From: Calditrichaceae bacterium
GTDB taxonomy: Bacteria; Calditrichota; Calditrichia; Calditrichales; JBFXGD01
DNA length: 16,640 bases
Assembly: GCA_050178385.1 (NCBI GenBank)
Contig: JBFXGD010000067.1
Coordinates: 1-16,640 of the forward strand
Reading direction: 5' to 3'
Each line of letters opens with the position of its first letter. The first letter of the stretch is position 1. This document shows, one piece after another, positions 3,501 through 12,691 of this stretch. Both the position numbers and the translations under genes were made by a program. A model generated the notes under the pieces. The model was not told the DNA's origin, ran no database searches, and saw nothing but the letters and a program-made list of their open reading frames with translations.

Positions 3501-4862
3501 TTACCACCTACTGATATACTCCATCGTTAAGGAACTCTCTTCACCCGCTTTAACGGGGATTTTAAATTTCAGAAAATTCGCTTTCTTCTCAAATAGTTTG
3601 TAATTAGACGAAACAAGTTCAACTTCCTGATACGGGTTTACGCGTTCCAGTATTTCAAGTTCAATATCTGTGTTCTTATGATTTCGAAGCGTATAACTTA
3701 TTTTTTGTGTCTGTGAACGCTTTTCTCTTCTCTGTGTTTCAAGAACATCCCGTTCCGCGACAACATCAAAGGCTTTTCCCACCTCAATTTCCAGTTTTTC
3801 GTCCTTTGGTGTGTGTTTAATTCGATTTTCGCCAACAAACTCCAGTTCATTTCCGTCTGCTTTATATAGACGAATAGTTCCTGCCGGAAGGGCAAAACCC
3901 AGATTATTCTCCTTCGAATTTTTGAGAATCACAAATACAGAGACACTGATCTCACCCGCGCTGTCCACACGATAGATTTTTTGCACATTACTTTTTGTTT
4001 CGGGAAATAGCTGTATTTGCTTGATCTGGTTCTGCTCAAGATCGGTCAGACGCTGCAGTGAGTAAAGATGATATTCAAAAAACTCCTTTTCCACAAAAGC
4101 GTCAGCATCTCTGGCCATCATTTTCACCATCGATCTTTCAGGATACGCCCTGCGGTCACTTACAAGATTAATATCTCCAGCCATCAATTTAAGCCGGGCG
4201 TTTTTATATGCTTTTCCGGATGTGTTATTAATTGTCACCCAGGATGCCAGCATGACCTCCGTGTCATTTTCATTTAATTTTGCCACATAGTCCGCCTGCC
4301 AATCAAGACCGCTGCTCAGATAGGAAAGCAGTGTCTTCTTATCGCCTTTACTCTCCGAATTGACTTTCCAAACAAGTGTGGGACGCGTTATGAAATTTGT
4401 TTTCGTTTTTGAATATTCTTTAAGAAAAATCTTTTGTTCGCCGTTTCTGGGAATAATCTGCATCTGACCGCCACCATCTATAAGAATCATATTAGAGGGT
4501 GTAGCCGAAAGCAGTTTACCGTCAATTACCCCCTGATCGGGGTGAATGATTCTTATTTCCTGATTCAGCGATTTGTCAAGAATTTTATCCACACTGATCA
4601 GATCATATTCATAATTCTGTTCAAGAACGCTAAAAGACTGATTTGCGCTTTCTATCAGGACTGAACCCGGATTTATCCCGGTTGGGATATCTTCCAGATA
4701 GATGGTTTGAAGTCCTTTGTCCATGGGTACTGACCTTACTTCACGTATAAGCCCCAGATTCGAATTTGTGACGGTTATTGCTACTTCATCCTGAGCAATG
4801 GATAAAACCGGCAGCATAATAATCAGAACAAGCAGAAGTGAAATGCTAATTAAATTTCTCAT
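3501..4862 (-). CDS. Secreted DUF4139 domain-containing protein
   Basis: N-terminal signal peptide (MRNLISISLLLVLIIMLPVLSIA-QD). Family-like motifs VAITVTNSNLGLIREVR, VLEQNYEYDL, LSYLSSGLDWQADY, WVTINNTSG..YKNARLKLMAGD, FFEYHLYSL, LGFALPAGTIRLY, FVGENRIKHTPKDE. Confidence 0.85.
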   Translation of the reverse strand: MRNLISISLLLVLIIMLPVLSIAQDEVAITVTNSNLGLIREVRSVPMDKGLQTIYLEDIPTGINPGSVLIESANQSFSVLEQNYEYDLISVDKILDKSLNQEIRIIHPDQGVIDGKLLSATPSNMILIDGGGQMQIIPRNGEQKIFLKEYSKTKTNFITRPTLVWKVNSESKGDKKTLLSYLSSGLDWQADYVAKLNENDTEVMLASWVTINNTSGKAYKNARLKLMAGDINLVSDRRAYPERSMVKMMARDADAFVEKEFFEYHLYSLQRLTDLEQNQIKQIQLFPETKSNVQKIYRVDSAGEISVSVFVILKNSKENNLGFALPAGTIRLYKADGNELEFVGENRIKHTPKDEKLEIEVGKAFDVVAERDVLETQRREKRSQTQKISYTLRNHKNTDIELEILERVNPYQEVELVSSNYKLFEKKANFLKFKIPVKAGEESSLTMEYISRW

Positions 4863-7494
4863 AATTTGATTTTACCTTTGCTAAATTTTCCTGAATATTT
4901 TTTAGCTTTTCTTTCTCGGCAAGCACAACTTTTTCCGGCGCTTTTTCAAGAAAGTTTTTGTTCTGAAGCTTGCCGTTAAGCGCCTTCTCGAGCCCTGTCA
5001 GCCGGCCCAGCTCCTTCTCAAGTCTTATTTTCTCTTTTTCCCTGTCTATTAAATCAGCCATCGGGATGAAGAATTCGATCCCTTTAACAACAACTGTCCC
5101 CGCGTCGTTCTTATCAAAATTATCCGGGATTTTTTCGATGGTTTCAACTTTTGCAAGCGAATTAAAGTACAGCCCGTTTTCTTTTATAATCCTCCAGGCC
5201 TCCGCCGTTCCGTTAACGAACACATGAATAGTTTTGCCGAGCGGCACATTCATTTCTGCTCTCAGATTACGGATAGAACCAATCGCTTCCTGAATGATAT
5301 CCATTTTCTCTTCGGCGGAGACATCTCTCATTTGAGCAGTAGATTCAGGCCATGGGGAAATGACGATACTTTGCTCATCATCATCGCTTAATTTCTGCCA
5401 AATTTCTTCCGTAATAAACGGAACAAAAGGATGAAGGAGTTCCATGCTTCCCTTCATGACAAACGAAGCAACCGCCAAAGCTGTATTTTTATCCTTTTCG
5501 GCATCCTCTTTATATAGCCGCGGCTTAATCAATTCAAGATACCAGTCACAGTAATCATGCCAGAAGAAATGATAGATCGAATTTAATGAATCATTAATCC
5601 GGAACTGATCCAGATTTCTTGATGTATTTTCCACCGCCTGATAAAAGCGGCTCAGAATCCATTTGTCGGCAAGTTCAAAATTATCCTGATAGACGGATAC
5701 ATTTGTGTCCGGCTTTTCGATATTCATATCAAGAAAACGAAACGCGTTCCAGATTTTATTGGAGAAATTCCGTCCCATTTCAAAATTTTTACGGTCAAGA
5801 TTGATATCCTGCCCTTCCGAACTCAGCATGATCAGCGTAAAGCGCACAGCATCTGCGCTGTATAAATCGATCATCTCCAGCGGATCGATACCGTTCCCTA
5901 AAGATTTTGACATTTTCCGGCCATTGGCATCCCGCACAATTCCGTTTAAAACCACGTCCCTAAACGGAACATCGTCCATCACTTCCAGACCGGCCATTAT
6001 CATTCTTGCCACCCAGAAGAATATGATATCAGGGGCAGTGACCAGAGTATCGGTAGGATAGAAATATTTCAGTTCCGCTTTTTCTTCCGGCCATCCCAGA
6101 GTTGAGAAAGGCCAAAGCCATGATGAAAACCATGTGTCAAGCACATCATCTTCCTGCCGGAATGATGTTTTTCCGCATTTTGTACATGTTTGCGGCATCT
6201 CACGGGCAACGATCATTTCGTTACAGTCATTGCAATAATACACCGGTATACGATGCCCCCACCACAACTGTCTAGATATACACCAGTCCCGCGCGTTTTC
6301 CATCCAGTGTTTATATGTCTTAAACCATCTCTCATGCGGATGCAGACGGATTTCACCATCTTCAACGACTTTAAGCGCTTTCTCGGCGAGCGGCTTGACT
6401 TTTACAAACCATTGCTCGGACAGATATGGTTCAATAATAGTTCCGCATCTCTGACAATGTCCCACATTGTGGCGATGTTTTTCTATTTTTTCAAGTAAGT
6501 CCAGTTTGGTCAGATCCTGCACGATCTGATTCCGGGCTGTGAAGCGGTCAAGACCCGCATATTTTCCCGCCATTTCACTCATTGTACCATCGGGATTCAT
6601 GACAGTTATCTGCGGCAGACTGTGTCTCTGACCCATCATAAAATCGTTCGGGTCATGCGCGGGCGTGACCTTGACGCAGCCCGTTCCGAATTCCCGGTCC
6701 ACAAAATCATCCGCGATTACAGGTATTTCGCGATCCATCAGGGGTAAAATCAATTTTTTACCGATTAAATCTTTAAAACGTTCATCTTTTGGATTCACCG
6801 CCACCGCTGTATCACCCAGCATTGTTTCAGGACGCGTGGTTGCAACGATCACATATTTGTTTTTTTCGCCTTTAACTCCGTACTTAATATGCCACAAATG
6901 GCCGTGACTGTCTTTATGCTCAACTTCTTCATCGGACAAGGCCGTCGCGCACCGCGGACACCAGTTGATAATATATTTACCTTTATAAATCAGGCCTTTT
7001 TCGTATAGCCTGATAAATATTTCCTTTACCGCGTTGGATAATCCCTCATCCATCGTGAACCGCTCTCTGCGCCAGTCACAGGATGAACCCAGTTTTTTTA
7101 ACTGACGGATGATTGTCGAGCCGTGTTTTGCTTTCCACTCCCAGACCCGCTCAAGAAACTCTTCCCTTCCCAGGTCATGTCTTGTTAAATTCTCTTTCGC
7201 AAGCTGTTTCTCAACAACATTTTGTGTCGCGATGCCGGCGTGGTCCGTTCCCGGAAGCCACAAGGCTTCAAAACCCTGTTTTCGTTTATAGCGAATAAGA
7301 ATATCCTGAATGGTATTATTGAAAGCGTGTCCAATATGCAGCATGGCTGTCACATTGGGAGGTGGAATCACTATGACATACGGTTTTTTTTCAGTATTAA
7401 CATCGGCATTGAAATACCCTTTTTCAAGCCAGTACTGATACCATTTATCTTCGACTGTCTTCGGATCATAAATTTTAGCAATCTCTTTTCGCAT
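4846..7494 (-). CDS. valS: Valine--tRNA ligase
   Basis: PPPNVTAMLHIGH (HIGH), PGTDHAGIATQ, ATTRPET, VKVTPAHDPND, DWCISRQLWWGHRIP, DVLDTWFSS, KMSKSLGN and C-terminal coiled-coil arm. Start moved from the track's 7524 to ATG at 7494 because of a GAGGAG Shine-Dalgarno at 7503-7508. Confidence 0.98.
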   Translation of the reverse strand: MRKEIAKIYDPKTVEDKWYQYWLEKGYFNADVNTEKKPYVIVIPPPNVTAMLHIGHAFNNTIQDILIRYKRKQGFEALWLPGTDHAGIATQNVVEKQLAKENLTRHDLGREEFLERVWEWKAKHGSTIIRQLKKLGSSCDWRRERFTMDEGLSNAVKEIFIRLYEKGLIYKGKYIINWCPRCATALSDEEVEHKDSHGHLWHIKYGVKGEKNKYVIVATTRPETMLGDTAVAVNPKDERFKDLIGKKLILPLMDREIPVIADDFVDREFGTGCVKVTPAHDPNDFMMGQRHSLPQITVMNPDGTMSEMAGKYAGLDRFTARNQIVQDLTKLDLLEKIEKHRHNVGHCQRCGTIIEPYLSEQWFVKVKPLAEKALKVVEDGEIRLHPHERWFKTYKHWMENARDWCISRQLWWGHRIPVYYCNDCNEMIVAREMPQTCTKCGKTSFRQEDDVLDTWFSSWLWPFSTLGWPEEKAELKYFYPTDTLVTAPDIIFFWVARMIMAGLEVMDDVPFRDVVLNGIVRDANGRKMSKSLGNGIDPLEMIDLYSADAVRFTLIMLSSEGQDINLDRKNFEMGRNFSNKIWNAFRFLDMNIEKPDTNVSVYQDNFELADKWILSRFYQAVENTSRNLDQFRINDSLNSIYHFFWHDYCDWYLELIKPRLYKEDAEKDKNTALAVASFVMKGSMELLHPFVPFITEEIWQKLSDDDEQSIVISPWPESTAQMRDVSAEEKMDIIQEAIGSIRNLRAEMNVPLGKTIHVFVNGTAEAWRIIKENGLYFNSLAKVETIEKIPDNFDKNDAGTVVVKGIEFFIPMADLIDREKEKIRLEKELGRLTGLEKALNGKLQNKNFLEKAPEKVVLAEKEKLKNIQENLAKVKSNYEKFN

Positions 7495-7623
7495 TAATAA
7501 CGCTCCTCGGAATTTTATCCACACCTGACATAACGATCAGGAAGTACTATTGAATAGCTCTAACTATATTAAATAATTCATTGTTCAATATTGCTATTTG
7601 TTAATTGGAAATGTTTAAACTTA

Positions 7624-7652
7624 AATATACAATAATTAGATAATTAAATAAA
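7624..7652 (-). promoter_or_regulatory. Possible sigma70-type promoter for the valS unit
   Basis: Minus strand TTTATT-17 nt-TATATT in a very AT-rich 180-bp intergenic region. The -35 is weak and chance matches are likely. Confidence 0.3.
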
Positions 7653-7674
7653 ATATTTAAGAATGGGGCATGAT

Positions 7675-9495
7675 TTATTCATTCACAAAATTATCCAGAA
7701 TCTCTCCAATAAAGAAACTTGTTTCCGTTAGGAATCTTTCGGATGAGCATCCCCGGCGGTTGCACACCTGGCAGGCAATAGTCAGATGGCAGTCAACCCT
7801 TTGCTTATATGAAGATTCCAGATCGGCAACAGCGTTTTCCATCTCTTTTGTAAACTCCTGGCTTGATTCATTTTCCATAGCAAGTTTCATAATTTTTTTC
7901 TTAACCATTTCCGACAAATCTTTTATTCTGCCGAGATAGGCGCTGATGGCGCTTCTCCAAATGGTCCTTGCGCGCATCATAATTTCTGATTCGATGTCTT
8001 CGGGTGTTCCCGGGCGAAGCGTCATAAGCCCTTTTTCCTTCAGCTCAAATATCTCATCGATTAAGGATCGGACATATTCCAGCTCATGAATTATTTTCGG
8101 GCTGGTATCGTAATAAATCTGATGGGCTGTATTATTTAACAACATTCTGGCTTCCAGGAAAAAATTATTCATTTCATTCTGCTTTTCACCAAAATTTTTC
8201 TTCAAAACATTACTGAATTTTTGTAATTGCTTCTCTGCGGCGGCTATTGATTTTATGGCATCATGGTATTCATTGATCTGGTTATATCCTAAAGATTGAA
8301 AAACAATATCGAAATATGCCTGAACGCTCATTTCGAGCTCTTTTAGATTCTCTCTTAGCCTGTGGCTTTCATTCTCAAACGAGTTGCTTACCTGTTTTCT
8401 TACCGATTCGTCAAAATGATCACTCAGGATATCCAAAACACGGTTGAAAACTTTTCTGGGAGTGGAAACGTCATTGATCAAATTAAAAATATCATCAAGC
8501 GAAAGCTGTTTAGCGGCTAATGACCGCAGCCCGGGGCTGGTGCTCAAATGACTGTGCGACAGAAGTATCACATTGTCAAAATTTGTCAAATCTTCGGAAC
8601 AGGCTTTGACAAGAATGGCCTGTTTCCTGATAAGCATCTGCAGAAAAAAATCTGAAATGGTCAGAAATTTACCATCTGCAACCACATTGTCACTGATATT
8701 CAGATCCGAAATATTGGCCCGTTTTAAATCTTCTCTCTTCTGAATAACAAAAACAAGTTCCGCCAAAATTTCAAAATGTAAAAGAGACGATTCGAAATGT
8801 TTACTTTCGAGACTGGTGAATACTATTCTTTTCAACTGAAGCGGGCTCGTATCGATCAGGATATTATACAATGCTTTCCGGATACTTTTATCTTCATCCG
8901 AAAAATGATTCAAAAACAGTATTAAATTTTTTTCATTGTTCAGATTTTCTGCGACTTTATTGATTTCAGAAATTCTTACAATGCGTTCCTTCTTGTCCTT
9001 CAGAGCTTCGATACACATTTCGGATATCTGCTCATCTTTTTTGCCATTGCCTCTCTCTTTGAGTAAGTGCATATATTTTACCAGCATCTGCACCGAGACG
9101 ACCGGATTTCTGAGCAGTTCGTTTATAATATCAAGATCATCCTCATACATCAGCAGTACAAGCACATTTGTCTGCCCCTCGTTCATCGCGAATTCTTTAC
9201 GCTCACGCTTATCAAAACCCATGATATCCTGATATTGCCCCATCAGGTCCCAGAATTCATTTTTTCGCGCGGCGCTGCGCACAAGATCGCTCTCATCATT
9301 CGCCAGAATATTTATTATAGACGGAAAGTGACAGATGCGCGCTACCTTAGCCCGCTGATGCTCATTTTCAAGCAATTCACCACTTATATAGATGTTAGAT
9401 GCAACCGGTGGCGCCTTTCTGAAATACTTTTCCATGACATAATTGAAATATTCCAGAAAATTTTTAAATGACCCTCGTCCTGCCTGAATCGCCAA
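7675..9495 (-). CDS. Hypothetical alpha-helical (HEAT/LRV-like repeat) protein with C-terminal C-x5-C-x2-C-x4-C motif
   Basis: 606-aa ORF with no TM segment or signal peptide. TTG start 1 nt after the upstream TGA, with GGAGG inside the last codons of that gene. Repeat-like segments LANDESDLVRSAARKN, FSDEDKSIRKAL, HLSTSPGLRSLAAKQ, LSDHFDESVRKQV. C-terminal CHLTIACQVCNRRGC. Confidence 0.75.
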   Translation of the reverse strand: MAIQAGRGSFKNFLEYFNYVMEKYFRKAPPVASNIYISGELLENEHQRAKVARICHFPSIINILANDESDLVRSAARKNEFWDLMGQYQDIMGFDKRERKEFAMNEGQTNVLVLLMYEDDLDIINELLRNPVVSVQMLVKYMHLLKERGNGKKDEQISEMCIEALKDKKERIVRISEINKVAENLNNEKNLILFLNHFSDEDKSIRKALYNILIDTSPLQLKRIVFTSLESKHFESSLLHFEILAELVFVIQKREDLKRANISDLNISDNVVADGKFLTISDFFLQMLIRKQAILVKACSEDLTNFDNVILLSHSHLSTSPGLRSLAAKQLSLDDIFNLINDVSTPRKVFNRVLDILSDHFDESVRKQVSNSFENESHRLRENLKELEMSVQAYFDIVFQSLGYNQINEYHDAIKSIAAAEKQLQKFSNVLKKNFGEKQNEMNNFFLEARMLLNNTAHQIYYDTSPKIIHELEYVRSLIDEIFELKEKGLMTLRPGTPEDIESEIMMRARTIWRSAISAYLGRIKDLSEMVKKKIMKLAMENESSQEFTKEMENAVADLESSYKQRVDCHLTIACQVCNRRGCSSERFLTETSFFIGEILDNFVNE

Positions 9496-9496
9496 A

Positions 9497-10030
9497 TCAC
9501 CCCTCCAGGGCTAAAGTAAACGCGGTTGTAAGTTTTAAAATATCACGGTTGGCTTTGCGTAACCGAACGACCAGCTCTGACGCGATATTACGATAAATGA
9601 GCATCCCGATACGTGTATCTTTCTCACAAATGTTTAAGAGATCTTTCTTTGTAAGCATCGCCATTAAACAGGTTTTTACGGTTTTTACTGACGCGGATCG
9701 TTCGGGCGTATCGTCAAACATCGCCATTTCTCCAAAAAAAGGATGATGTTTTTCCGAGAGATGCAAAAGAGATTTTTCTTGTTTCTGACTGGATTGAATC
9801 CATTGCGGCAGCACCAGGGACTTTGAAATTTCCACCTCACCTTCCAGTAAAATATAAATCGTATTATCCAAATCACCTTCCCTGATAAACGGCTGGCCGG
9901 CTTCTATTTCTTTCACCTTCATTACAGCGAGAATGGTTTTTATCTCATTTTCTTCAAGATCCCTGAAAAGAGGAACTTCTTTAAGATAATCCATCTTCGA
10001 TAATAATTCTTTTGGAATATTTTTATTCAT
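9497..10030 (-). CDS. Stand-alone cyclic nucleotide-binding domain protein (no HTH)
   Basis: LKEVPLFRDL, AGQPFIREGD..IYILLEGEVEI, phosphate-binding cassette FFGEMAMFDDTPERSASV, then a C-helix ending at aa 177 with no room for a CRP-type DNA-binding domain. Confidence 0.93.
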   Translation of the reverse strand: MNKNIPKELLSKMDYLKEVPLFRDLEENEIKTILAVMKVKEIEAGQPFIREGDLDNTIYILLEGEVEISKSLVLPQWIQSSQKQEKSLLHLSEKHHPFFGEMAMFDDTPERSASVKTVKTCLMAMLTKKDLLNICEKDTRIGMLIYRNIASELVVRLRKANRDILKLTTAFTLALEG

Positions 10031-11174
10031 GCTGACTGCTCTCTATTGATAAATAAAAATCCGATCTCTTTAACTCCAGGTCCGGAGAAGGATTAACCAC
10101 GATTTTAATTTGTTCATCCCCATCCATACCACGCCCGGCCTCCTTAAATTTCTGCATGATATAAGAATCAAGATAAGAGTAATCATCACTAAGGATTTCC
10201 GTTAGATTAAACGGCTCTGTGATCTGTCCAAGGCCTATTAAAATTCCTGAATACCGCTCCTTGTAGTATGCGGATAACTCCGAATATTTATGACCTGCAA
10301 GCTCACCGGGTATCTGGCGTCTTATGATTTTGTTTGACGCGTTTGCCGAGAATATCTGTTCAATGAGCTGCGGCACGCCCGGGGCAGAAACATAGTTCGC
10401 AAGTAAAAACCCCGTGTAAGCATCACTGACGATCACCTCATCGGCCTTGGCCTTCCGCAAATGCGAAATGTTATCTCGCTCCAGAATATGGGCGTACACC
10501 TTTATTTTGGGATTAAGCGTTTTTAGAGACAACGTGGCAAGGATTGTTCGTTCATCGCCTGATTTTACAAGGGCCGAACTATTATCCGGCAAAATGATGG
10601 CTGAAACCGCATTCTGGACGTTTGCCCTGGTCAAAATATTTTCTCTTGTAAAATCACCGCGGACAAATTTAATCGTCAGATTGCTGAACTTCGATAATAT
10701 GACATCAATATCCTCTTCGGACAATTGATTGATTAATACTATCGGTGCGGATCTGTCCTTTTCTTTATCAAGTGTAGCCAGTATTTGCTCAGCCTGAACA
10801 TTCCAGCCGCACAACAGGACGTGTTTTTCTATTTTTACATTCTGCAAGCCTTTCCCCTCTCTAATCATACGAGATACAAATATGGAAGAAATCGTTGCTG
10901 TTACTACAGAGAGCATCGCAACGCCGAAAAACATCAGGATAACACCAAGAACTCTGCCTACAGGAGTGACAGGTATTTTATCCCCATATCCAACAGTCGA
11001 TATTGTCACAAAAACCCACCAGATGGAGTCCCAAAAATTTTTGAACTGATCATTGATCCCTTCTTCAGAATACTCAACCAAGACGGATGCCACAACCGCG
11101 ATGATCAACAGTGTCATTAAGGCGCTGAAAGCGGGATGTTTTCTTAGTTCAATTATTTTTTTTAGTTTTTTCAC
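10023..11174 (-). CDS. Two-TM potassium channel with RCK (TrkA-N-like) gating domain, MthK/YugO-like
   Basis: TM1, pore helix FWDSIWWVFVTIS, selectivity filter TVGYGD (10980-10997), TM2, then Rossmann-like RCK (KHVLLCGWN, FVRGDFT..L.RANV..A, DERTILATLSLK..NP, HLRKAKADEVI) and an RCK C-lobe ending VVNP. GTG start. Confidence 0.95.
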   Translation of the reverse strand: MKKLKKIIELRKHPAFSALMTLLIIAVVASVLVEYSEEGINDQFKNFWDSIWWVFVTISTVGYGDKIPVTPVGRVLGVILMFFGVAMLSVVTATISSIFVSRMIREGKGLQNVKIEKHVLLCGWNVQAEQILATLDKEKDRSAPIVLINQLSEEDIDVILSKFSNLTIKFVRGDFTRENILTRANVQNAVSAIILPDNSSALVKSGDERTILATLSLKTLNPKIKVYAHILERDNISHLRKAKADEVIVSDAYTGFLLANYVSAPGVPQLIEQIFSANASNKIIRRQIPGELAGHKYSELSAYYKERYSGILIGLGQITEPFNLTEILSDDYSYLDSYIMQKFKEAGRGMDGDEQIKIVVNPSPDLELKRSDFYLSIESSQHE

Positions 11175-11214
11175 GTCTTTTACAGATTTTTCAGAAAGAA
11201 TAATTAATTAAATC

Positions 11215-11234
11215 TACCCGTTTCAATCCGGGTA
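11215..11234. other. Short hairpin/inverted repeat in the K+ channel leader
   Basis: TACCCG-N8-CGGGTA. No clean U-tract, so a terminator role is uncertain. Confidence 0.3.
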
Positions 11235-11235
11235 C

Positions 11236-11281
11236 TATTTGAGCTTATTCAAATATAAACGAAACTATACCTGCTCTACAA
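11236..11281 (-). promoter_or_regulatory. Putative promoter of the K+ channel operon with overlapping inverted repeat (candidate operator)
   Basis: Minus strand TTGTAG-18 nt-TATATT (-10 at 11252-11257). Inverted repeat TATTTGA-N6-TCAAATA at 11236-11255 overlaps the -10/+1 region. Confidence 0.4.
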
Positions 11282-12691
11282 CACTAAACTAAATTTATGC
11301 GGAAGACGTATTCGCATTTCACCCGAATCAATATAAACTGAGGCGAATGGAAGTCCTTCCCTATCCAGAACAAAATAACCATCTTCAATATCGTCAGTTT
11401 TTAATTTTCCTGAACTAAATATTTCAATCAATCGCGCGTCAGTCAATTCTAGTCTTCTTCGCGTTATCAAATTGCTTAGTAGCTGCACGCTTTGATTTGT
11501 CAGTTTCCACATTCTCAATTTCTCTTCACCCAGTAAAATACCTCCATTGGTAAATCCCTCATCCGGAAATGATTCAACATCATTGTTAAACATCCAAATA
11601 CGGTTACGCGTGCGCAAATATCTCCGCTGTTTCCAATACGATGATGAGATCCCCCAGGTTTCAGAAATACTTTCCAGGTCCTTTTTAACCGACTCATGAT
11701 CATGTTTTACTGTAAATCTCCGGTCCTGTTCAGCCGACAGGCGATTTGGTTTAACTCTACCCGTCTTAATAAGCCGGACAACAAAAAAACCTTCCATGTC
11801 ATGGAGATGCGGTACAATACGTATGGCCCTGCGGAGATCAGGATTTATTTTATGTCCCTTGTATTCCGTTATTCCACAGGAAAAATGCATAAGATTTTTT
11901 ATATTAATTTCAGCAACTTCCACAGGATATCTTTCCAGGATACTCTGAATGACCAGCTCATTTTCTTCCGGAGCAACCGAGCAGGTGGAATACACAATTT
12001 CGCCGCCTGTTCGGGCTGCCTTCACAGCTGATATAAGCAATTGGTTCTGTACGCTGTTGAGCTTCTCCAGCTTTTCCGGGGTCCACCATTTTATTATTTC
12101 AGGATTTGTGGCGAGAGTGCCTAAAGCCGTACAAGGCGCGTCTACCAGAACTTTATCAAAATACTCCGGGAAAATTTTCCCCAGGCGTTCCCCCGGCAGA
12201 TTATAGATGTACTGAATCATCGCGCCTGCCTTTTGAAGATTCGTGTTCAAAGGCTGATGCCGTGATCTCGAAGAGTCGTTTACAACCAATTGACCCTGAT
12301 TTTGCATCATAGCGGCAATTTGAGTGGATTTTGAACCGGGCGCCGCCGCCAAATCAAGTACCTTTTCCCCCGGCTTCGGATCAAGAACAATTGAAGGTAT
12401 TTGTGATGAAAGCCCCTGATACTGAATGTTTCCTCTAAAGAATTCGAGTGTGTGGCTTAAAGGCAGAACATCATCTTTTATAATAATCCCGGAATCATTG
12501 ATTACCGACTTATTATAAGCGACATCCCAGCGGATGAGCTGATTCTCAAATTCGCTAAGCGTCGTTTTTAAGGTATTCACTCTGACGGCTTTTGGTTCAG
12601 GGCGCGCGTTCAAAAAATCGAGATATTGAACGGCAAACAAATCTTTTAAATATTTACTCAGACTGACATTATCCATTATCTCAATCCGCAT
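11276..12691 (-). CDS. rsmF: RsmB/NOP2-family RNA cytosine-C5 methyltransferase, RsmF (YebU)-like
   Basis: VRVNTLK, SAM-binding VLDLAAAPGSKSTQIA, motif IV FDKVLVDAPC, motif VI GGEIVYSTCSVAPEENE, EGFFV. No N-terminal NusB-like domain (unlike RsmB) and a ~150-aa C-terminal extension as in RsmF. Exact target base not determinable. Confidence 0.8.
   Translation of the reverse strand: MRIEIMDNVSLSKYLKDLFAVQYLDFLNARPEPKAVRVNTLKTTLSEFENQLIRWDVAYNKSVINDSGIIIKDDVLPLSHTLEFFRGNIQYQGLSSQIPSIVLDPKPGEKVLDLAAAPGSKSTQIAAMMQNQGQLVVNDSSRSRHQPLNTNLQKAGAMIQYIYNLPGERLGKIFPEYFDKVLVDAPCTALGTLATNPEIIKWWTPEKLEKLNSVQNQLLISAVKAARTGGEIVYSTCSVAPEENELVIQSILERYPVEVAEINIKNLMHFSCGITEYKGHKINPDLRRAIRIVPHLHDMEGFFVVRLIKTGRVKPNRLSAEQDRRFTVKHDHESVKKDLESISETWGISSSYWKQRRYLRTRNRIWMFNNDVESFPDEGFTNGGILLGEEKLRMWKLTNQSVQLLSNLITRRRLELTDARLIEIFSSGKLKTDDIEDGYFVLDREGLPFASVYIDSGEMRIRLPHKFSLVL

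Follow-up and report, generated by a model that had tools for sequence, protein, structure and literature searches.

Three co-oriented genes at one locus

We analyzed a 16,640-nucleotide (nt) stretch of DNA from a Calditrichaceae bacterium (contig JBFXGD010000067.1 of assembly GCA_050178385.1; hereafter, the window), all genes of which lie on the minus strand, focusing on three consecutive genes that a preliminary description had proposed to form a K+ signalling module. The first (10023..11174, GTG start) encodes an MthK-like K+ channel of 383 amino acids (aa) with a two-transmembrane-helix (2TM) pore and a single RCK domain. The second (9497..10030, ATG start) encodes a free 177-aa cyclic-nucleotide-binding protein that, by Pfam (PF00027), AlphaFold2 (AF2) modelling and Foldseek, carries no domain other than its cyclic-nucleotide-binding domain (CNBD). 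The third (7675..9495, TTG start) encodes a 606-aa, all-helical, HEAT-like protein with a C-terminal Cys4 motif, as judged from its AF2 model and from Pfam matches of its relatives. We propose that the functional unit is rather likely the two-gene, translationally coupled operon of channel and CNBD protein, with the latter acting as a detachable regulatory subunit.

All three open reading frames (ORFs) are present on the minus strand as previously described, and both reported junctions can be read directly in the sequence. The ATG of the CNBD gene at 10030 precedes the TAA of the channel gene at 10023-10025, so that stop and start share the 8-nt overlap ATGAATAA (10023..10030); judging from the sequence, this overlap is one of translational coupling. 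At the second junction (9495..9499) the TGA of the CNBD gene is separated by a single T from the TTG start of the 606-aa gene, with a GGAGG 6 nt before the TTG. The three-gene arrangement is far beyond chance, because it is found again in dozens of genomes.

An MthK-like channel with a family-specific C terminus

Pfam places Ion_trans_2 at channel residues 24-99 (E-value 3e-17) and TrkA_N (PF02254) at residues 119-249 (2e-13; also PF22614), in agreement with the domains first assigned to this protein; the cNMP_binding assignment of the small protein was likewise confirmed. MthK is the best solved relative of the channel (E ~1e-26, aligned over residues 11-318). As in MthK, the 2TM pore domain contains the selectivity filter TVGYGD (residues 60-65; 10980..10997, minus strand), which is conserved in the family alignments, and is followed by one cytoplasmic RCK domain, whose N-lobe (residues 119-249; 10428..10820) is defined by Pfam and by residue-by-residue alignment to the MthK chains. 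A 6TM or voltage-sensor-like architecture was not found in the channel, only ~100 residues preceding the RCK domain, and a match to Ion_trans covers the pore part only (profile positions 136-235 of 241).

The channel appears to have lost most of the MthK Ca2+ site and to have gained a conserved C-terminal element. Of the main Ca2+ ligands of MthK, which we take to be D184, E210 and E212, only the first is kept (D197), the other two being replaced by H229 and L231; both replacements are conserved in the family and H229 is nearly invariant. Since the main Ca2+ site is not kept, some other input to the channel is plausible. Beyond the MthK alignment lies a family-specific C-terminal part (residues 319-383; 10026..10220, minus strand) with an S-x-L/I-D-x-F-I motif. 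Here S333, L335, D336, I339, K342 and G347 are invariant within the phylum and D336 and I339, together with G347, are conserved in at least 95% of sequences across phyla, while L335 varies. Residues 319-383 are a candidate docking site.

A free CNBD with an intact ligand cassette

The small protein matches cNMP_binding (PF00027) over residues 40-138 with an E-value of 1.6e-14 and 54 bits, against a cut-off of 27.5. Its phosphate-binding cassette (residues 99-113, FGEM ... RSA; 9692..9736, minus strand) has the G-E pair and the arginine for the cyclic phosphate, both typical of CNBDs. G100, E101, M102, R111 and A113 are invariant in 27 Calditrichota sequences and remain conserved at 95% or above in 80 sequences from across phyla, and because FGEM, R111 and A113 are kept at this level, the ligand site is under selection. 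Since the cassette is intact and the genome from which the window derives encodes cyclases (three class-III domains, alongside ten CNBDs), the protein probably binds a cyclic nucleotide.

The AF2 model (predicted local distance difference test (pLDDT) score 88.6) shows a beta-roll with B and C helices, the C-helix being a single long one (residues 139-176). Its distal half (residues 155-176; 9503..9568, minus strand), which contains the sequence LKLTT, is the best-conserved stretch of the entire protein and projects from the domain in the model; we propose that it may serve as an effector or oligomerisation surface. Foldseek matched the model to the CNBDs of CRP, CNG channels, PKA and PKG (E ~1e-12), with further fold matches to SthK, MloK1, CNG channels with a CLZ coiled coil and the stand-alone CNBD 3gyd; MloK1 and SthK CNBDs are also matched by the sequence profile of the family. 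Neither Pfam nor the AF2 model revealed a DNA-binding helix-turn-helix or another output domain, the protein ending at residue 177 with the C-helix, and an NCBIfam CRP match covers the sensor part only, far below its cut-off. Given the lack of an output domain, the conserved, projecting C-helix would be the only possible output of this protein.

These features also bear on an alternative that we regard as very unlikely, namely that the CNBD fold is a constitutive, ligand-independent auxiliary domain. MthK makes a soluble RCK from an internal start in the linker and assembles an octameric ring, and KCNH channels carry cyclic-nucleotide-binding homology domains, so that the small protein might, by analogy, stand in for the soluble RCK and close the cytoplasmic ring. 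A methionine in the linker window, Met being the start codon counted, was found in just 10 of 74 channels, which fits this idea in that MthK-style soluble RCK production is apparently not conserved. A purely structural domain would, however, leave unexplained why the residues of the cassette in contact with the cyclic phosphate hardly vary from phylum to phylum and why the genome encodes cyclases.

Channel and CNBD genes occur as a pair within Calditrichota

We compared the locus across 86 Calditrichota genomes, the window's own included; nearly all genomes compared in this work are metagenome bins. Orthologue thresholds were chosen from gaps in the E-value lists (channel, E <= 3e-81 and at least 39% identity; CNBD, E <= 1e-18). 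A channel orthologue is present in 50 of the 86 genomes and a CNBD orthologue in 51, the latter always as a single copy. Comparison of coordinates placed the CNBD gene directly 3' of the channel gene, on the same strand, for all 50 channels, and the 51st CNBD gene starts 19 nt from a contig end. Where no 606-aa gene adjoins the pair (13 loci), the two genes form a unit of their own, followed by a convergent gene.

Absence is shared as well. The ten genomes of family f2 have none of the three orthologues, and G010, although 99% complete, has neither channel nor CNBD. In G008 a single deletion, running from channel residue ~291-292 to CNBD residue ~122-123, removed parts of both genes, and in G048 the channel keeps residues 1-120 and 323-382 while its RCK part is lost and the CNBD gene is gone.

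The remnants are worth describing individually. At the G008 locus (L056, G008:C203, 2029-3050) the channel is also frameshifted near residue 100, and the downstream 606-aa gene is intact with a 626-aa open frame. G048 retains a mini-channel (L035:5394-5933) in which pore residues 1-120 are fused in frame to residues 323-382 and the RCK N-lobe is missing, and at G049:C112:36488-36841 only the pore part matches the channel; the G048 and G049 remnants are either decaying genes or pore-only channels. In G073, a gap of ~650 nt with a 95-aa ORF (L021:4889-5176, plus strand) separates channel and CNBD genes, the sole long spacing among the pairs of the phylum.

The pairing extends across phyla

For the wider view, a CNBD profile was run against named records with one genome per species, yielding 150 relatives, of which the best 80 loci were kept. 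A channel gene lies immediately upstream of the CNBD gene in 77 of these 80 loci, 73 of them with an ORF of more than 340 aa, three cut by a contig end and one with a 259-aa ORF. The labels on the records comprise Calditrichota, Bacteroidota (including Chitinophagaceae and Cytophagia), Ignavibacteriae, Latescibacterota, KSB1, Neomarinimicrobiota, Gemmatimonas, Chloroflexi, FCB group and others; they were given to metagenome bins by the submitters and are probably incorrect in some cases. The distance from channel stop to CNBD start mostly ranges from -20 to +20 nt, a 4-nt overlap being frequent. In the window and at the 77 related loci alike, the two proteins are encoded by separate ORFs with their own start and stop, so the covalent joining of CNBD and channel known from MloK1 and SthK was not seen in any of them. 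The 259-aa gene (L089:2655-4034, plus strand, Gemmatimonas label) contains only a recognizable Ion_trans_2 domain, matches channel residues 15-179, and may be a short-form channel still paired with a CNBD or a truncated gene.

An independent sample of one order, built around G086 (the genome of L098) and comprising 151 genomes, gave the same picture. The CNBD orthologue is present in 29 genomes and the channel in the identical 29; the pair is adjacent in 28 of them and split over two contigs in G096, and the remaining 122 of the 151 genomes have neither at the thresholds. One-to-one presence and absence in two distant lineages, joint deletions and overlaps kept across phyla form the pattern that two subunits produced at a fixed ratio would be expected to leave.

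Outside Calditrichota the pair has a regular third neighbour. In 35 of the 49 loci without a 606-aa gene, valS follows the CNBD gene, starting within 300 nt in 33 of the 35, which suggests that channel-CNBD-valS is the older order (seen at L087, L090-L094, L097-L099, L103, L109, L111-L116, L119-L125, L127, L128, L130, L131, L133, L134 and L136). In Calditrichota, the CNBD gene and valS are separated by the 606-aa gene. The channel-CNBD-valS arrangement is in itself a case of unusually deep gene-order conservation beside an essential tRNA synthetase gene, spanning several phyla outside Calditrichota; at L092, valS even overlaps the CNBD gene.

Pairwise distances of channel and CNBD correlate strongly (r 0.89), and both also correlate with those of valS. 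Given valS, the channel-CNBD partial correlation is 0.29 in 39 loci, a value matched in 0 of 999 permutations though inflated by kinship, and it lends weak support to the proposed pair.

The 606-aa protein is optional

The preliminary description had made the 606-aa protein the third member of the module, as a scaffold or as metal/redox input. This part of the proposal is the weaker one, the protein being optional, missing beyond Calditrichota and found standing alone or outliving the pair. Synteny, which had been put forward as a check on the three genes together, gave a divided answer: the channel-CNBD pair is syntenic across phyla, the 606-aa gene only in part of Calditrichota.

The 606-aa protein is encoded in 53 of the 86 Calditrichota genomes, and of the 50 pairs, 36 have its gene directly 3' of the CNBD gene (families f1, f3, f4 and f6 and three f5 genomes). 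It is not adjacent in 13 pairs: with the 606-aa protein as query it was not found in G058-G060 (f8) and eight f5 genomes, and in G051 and G052 (f7) it is located on contigs other than that of the pair. In G018, pair and 606-aa gene are also on separate contigs; one contig runs on for 670 nt past the pair without a 606-aa match (L054, G018:C143), the 606-aa gene and valS begin 893 nt into another (L020, G018:C356), and the two parts may be kept apart by a repeat or an inserted element. In nine f8 genomes, G053 and G010, by contrast, the 606-aa gene is present and an orthologous pair is not, and the gene is intact beside the degraded channel and CNBD genes of G008 and G048. Among the 80 cross-phylum loci, it follows in 31, which are labelled Calditrichota or, in one case, KSB1, and is missing at 49, including every locus with another phylum's label except that one KSB1 locus. 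At the stand-alone loci of f7 and f8 no shared operon partner was evident; some of these homologues lie beside an HU (Bac_DNA_binding) gene (L022, L025, L026, L033, L034) and others near the flagellar filament genes FlaG, FliT and FliW (L027, L030, L032).

This distribution has to be set against the persistence of the linkage where it exists. A quick maximum-likelihood tree of the 606-aa family (42 sequences, SH-aLRT support only, two very long branches) follows family taxonomy, and the label linked or unlinked changes 3-4 times on it, two of these changes being the G018 contig break and the G048 remnant. The linkage to the CNBD gene is kept from ~94% down to ~28% (27-29%) identity in 36 genomes of five families. 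This goes beyond what a casual insertion would show and would allow for an accessory role, a point that tells against a strictly two-gene unit. We rejected a merely recent insertion because of the same persistence, and an obligate subunit because of the phyletic pattern.

We accordingly weighed the possibility that, within Calditrichota, the 606-aa protein is a true third subunit, binding either the RCK ring or the CNBD protein as a scaffold or as a source of metal/redox input. The TGA-T-TTG junction with its well-placed GGAGG fits translational coupling, the linked state needs few changes on the tree, and four invariant cysteines on a solenoid fold typical of protein-binding scaffolds would suit such a role, as would the adjacency in most pairs of the phylum. 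We nevertheless judge this reading to be rather unlikely, in view of the pairs and cross-phylum loci that lack the gene, its intact presence without the pair, on other contigs or beside a degraded pair, and because, in alignments inspected by eye, no obvious channel or CNBD feature tracks its presence. The most elaborate version, a split channel in which a cyclic-nucleotide sensor acting through its C-helix and a HEAT-like Cys4 metal/redox subunit converge on one K+ pore that lost Ca2+ sensing, appears improbable. As far as gene content can tell, the 606-aa protein is an optional passenger or accessory and not a defining part of the unit, and an accessory role in the Calditrichota operon seems doubtful to us, being neither required nor general. 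Its gene would have come to lie 3' of the CNBD gene early in part of the phylum and would be co-transcribed there.

As to the protein itself, no Pfam family was found above cut-off on the window's copy, but 6 of 27 relatives match HEAT (E <= 0.01) and 2 of the 27 match HEAT_2. The AF2 model consists of helices throughout (pLDDT 86.5). Its Foldseek matches are only generic HEAT/ARM solenoids (karyopherin, SF3b, Pds5), all with E > 1e-3 and a TM score of ~0.1, and the ESM Atlas returned HEAT/LRV-like clusters below the tool's own bar. Assigning a function from the fold was thus dropped, the matches being generic solenoids below the tools' bars. A profile of the family found only 61 proteins among 1.84 billion representatives, and the family is essentially confined to Calditrichota, with one relative in Caldithrix sp. 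The Cx5Cx2Cx4C motif (C569, C575, C578, C583; 7747..7791, minus strand) is a probable metal site, and its cysteines show no variation among 27 close relatives or in a set of 20 sequences to which distant stand-alone members belong. The protein is best seen as having its own, phylum-specific function, probably involving metal and protein binding, and the family is a clean case of an uncharacterized protein limited to one phylum and carrying an invariant metal-type motif.

Does the CNBD protein act on the channel?

The preliminary description had further suggested that a separate CNBD subunit may gate the RCK channel in trans. For the pair, the underlying idea that the two proteins belong together functionally gained strong support from gene neighbourhood and phyletic distribution, the three-part version of it faring less well. 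We consider it reasonably probable, from the genes, that the CNBD protein binds the channel directly and regulates it.

Several observations weigh against this interpretation. No fused channel-CNBD protein was found with the CNBD query among longer proteins at E <= 1e-8, nor PF00027 in the best 120 of 2225 channel relatives, all of 336-422 aa (both shallow searches), so that contact cannot be argued from fusions, as is usually done. No channel lies upstream at three of the 80 loci, of which L101 and L110 have room for one and L100 has only 318 nt of flank, too little to tell. In addition, valS, which is surely no channel subunit, is conserved beside the pair, and adjacency alone can therefore persist without function. 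Finally, direct contact and gating are both argued from the genes. A complex prediction for channel residues 100-383 with the CNBD protein, run without controls, scored 0.01, under the mark, and counts neither for nor against the claim. In the course of the fusion search, a second CNBD match in G086 was considered as a fused channel and rejected: it is a 542-aa CNBD-GAF-HisKA-HATPase histidine kinase (L137:2422-4050, plus strand; G086:C8), that is, another cyclic-nucleotide receptor in a pair-bearing genome.

The lack of fusions, the three CNBD loci without a channel and the behavior of valS are all compatible with co-regulation without interaction, in which the CNBD protein would be a soluble cyclic-nucleotide receptor or buffer with other targets and would share an operon with the channel to serve one physiological response. 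We hold this to be fairly unlikely as well. Such an arrangement does not readily account for the one-to-one pattern (50 of 50 in Calditrichota; 29 of 29 with 122 of 122 joint absences around G086) and the joint deletions, for the start/stop overlaps kept across phyla, or for a CNBD protein with no output domain except a conserved C-helix.

Under the preferred reading, that of a channel with a detachable CNBD subunit, the CNBD protein would bind cAMP or cGMP through its intact phosphate-binding cassette. The ligand would reposition the long C-helix, the projecting distal half of which would contact the cytoplasmic RCK assembly of the channel, possibly involving the family-specific C-terminal segment. 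Contact would then shift the open probability of the pore, such that K+ flux or membrane potential would track the cellular cyclic-nucleotide level.

Relation to known channels and regulators

The preliminary description knew of no characterized system with this layout. Our literature search agrees: full-text searches, whose coverage lay outside subscription journals, found no report of a free CNBD partner of a 2TM-RCK channel. To our knowledge, ion channels under the control of cyclic nucleotides have been described only with a sensor that is part of the channel polypeptide (CNG, HCN, MloK1, SthK), and RCK channels are known to respond to ions, or to nucleotides that the RCK itself binds.

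MthK, the Ca2+-gated 2TM-RCK channel of Methanothermobacter (PDB 1lnq, 3rbz), shares the 2TM pore, TVGYGD and the one RCK domain. In contrast to MthK, the channel described here has H229 and L231 in place of two of the three Ca2+ ligands, no conserved linker Met and ~65 extra C-terminal residues with a family motif, and is always paired with a CNBD gene. MloK1 and SthK share with our system a K+ pore presumably controlled by a canonical CNBD. In those two, a C-linker joins the CNBD to a 6TM channel, whereas our system combines a 2TM channel with a CNBD made as its own polypeptide, and the RCK domain occupies the place that C-linker and CNBD would have.

Regulation in trans by a nucleotide-binding protein encoded beside the membrane protein is shared with the K+ transporters KtrAB/TrkAH and Kef (with its KefF/G partners), the cytoplasmic regulatory subunits of which are likewise separate proteins. 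These free subunits belong to the RCK or flavodoxin-like type and bind ATP/ADP, NAD(H) or c-di-AMP; the free subunit here is a CNBD, RCK being already on the channel. The CRP/FNR sensor domains and 3gyd (Methylobacillus flagellatus) have the same beta-roll and long C-helix (top TM scores ~0.68-0.74), but the CNBD protein differs from them in having no DNA-binding domain and a dedicated pairing with a channel gene. The 606-aa protein, in turn, shares the all-helical repeat architecture of HEAT/LRV-type alpha-solenoids and stands apart from them by its unique invariant Cx5Cx2Cx4C motif and by the lack of a specific structural match.

The split design thus varies two known kinds of K+ channel, the RCK-gated and the CNBD-gated, and does not amount to a new kind of system. 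If the proposed reading is true, a separate cyclic-nucleotide sensor, co-made with the channel in stoichiometric amounts, would represent a third channel design, show how RCK and CNBD gating modules combine, and provide a simple bacterial system (~380 plus ~175 residues) to study how a CNBD signals to a foreign partner. The module is widespread in environmental bacteria of the FCB group and may couple cAMP/cGMP signals to K+ homeostasis or membrane potential in organisms whose signal transduction has hardly been studied.

Neighbouring genes and other features of the window

Upstream of the channel gene lies a gene for an RsmB/F-type methyltransferase (11276-12691, minus strand). The gap between the two is 101 bp (11175-11275), as originally reported; on the other side, the reported 180 bp between the 606-aa gene and valS hold when valS starts at the ATG at 7494, which agrees with the N-termini of homologues, the distance to the listed GTG being 150 bp.

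Promoter-like sites between 7300 and 11500 were as frequent as expected (11 observed versus 11.5) and gave no usable evidence on boundaries. A terminator-like hairpin of 6 pairs, 4 of them G-C, is located at 11215-11234 on the minus strand, between the RsmB/F-like gene and the channel gene; it is the sole terminator-like site in 7300-11500, against 3.2 expected from shuffled sequence. No Rfam family and no tRNA turned up when the window was scanned for them, and an NCBIfam scan of the window proteins added nothing specific to the Pfam calls.

Downstream, Pfam identifies valS (4846..7524, minus strand), the stop region of which overlaps by 17 nt the start of a DUF4139 gene (3501-4862, minus strand). 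A gene for a 727-aa PEGA-domain protein starts 7 nt past the DUF4139 gene, and valS, the DUF4139 gene and the PEGA-domain gene may form a single transcription unit.

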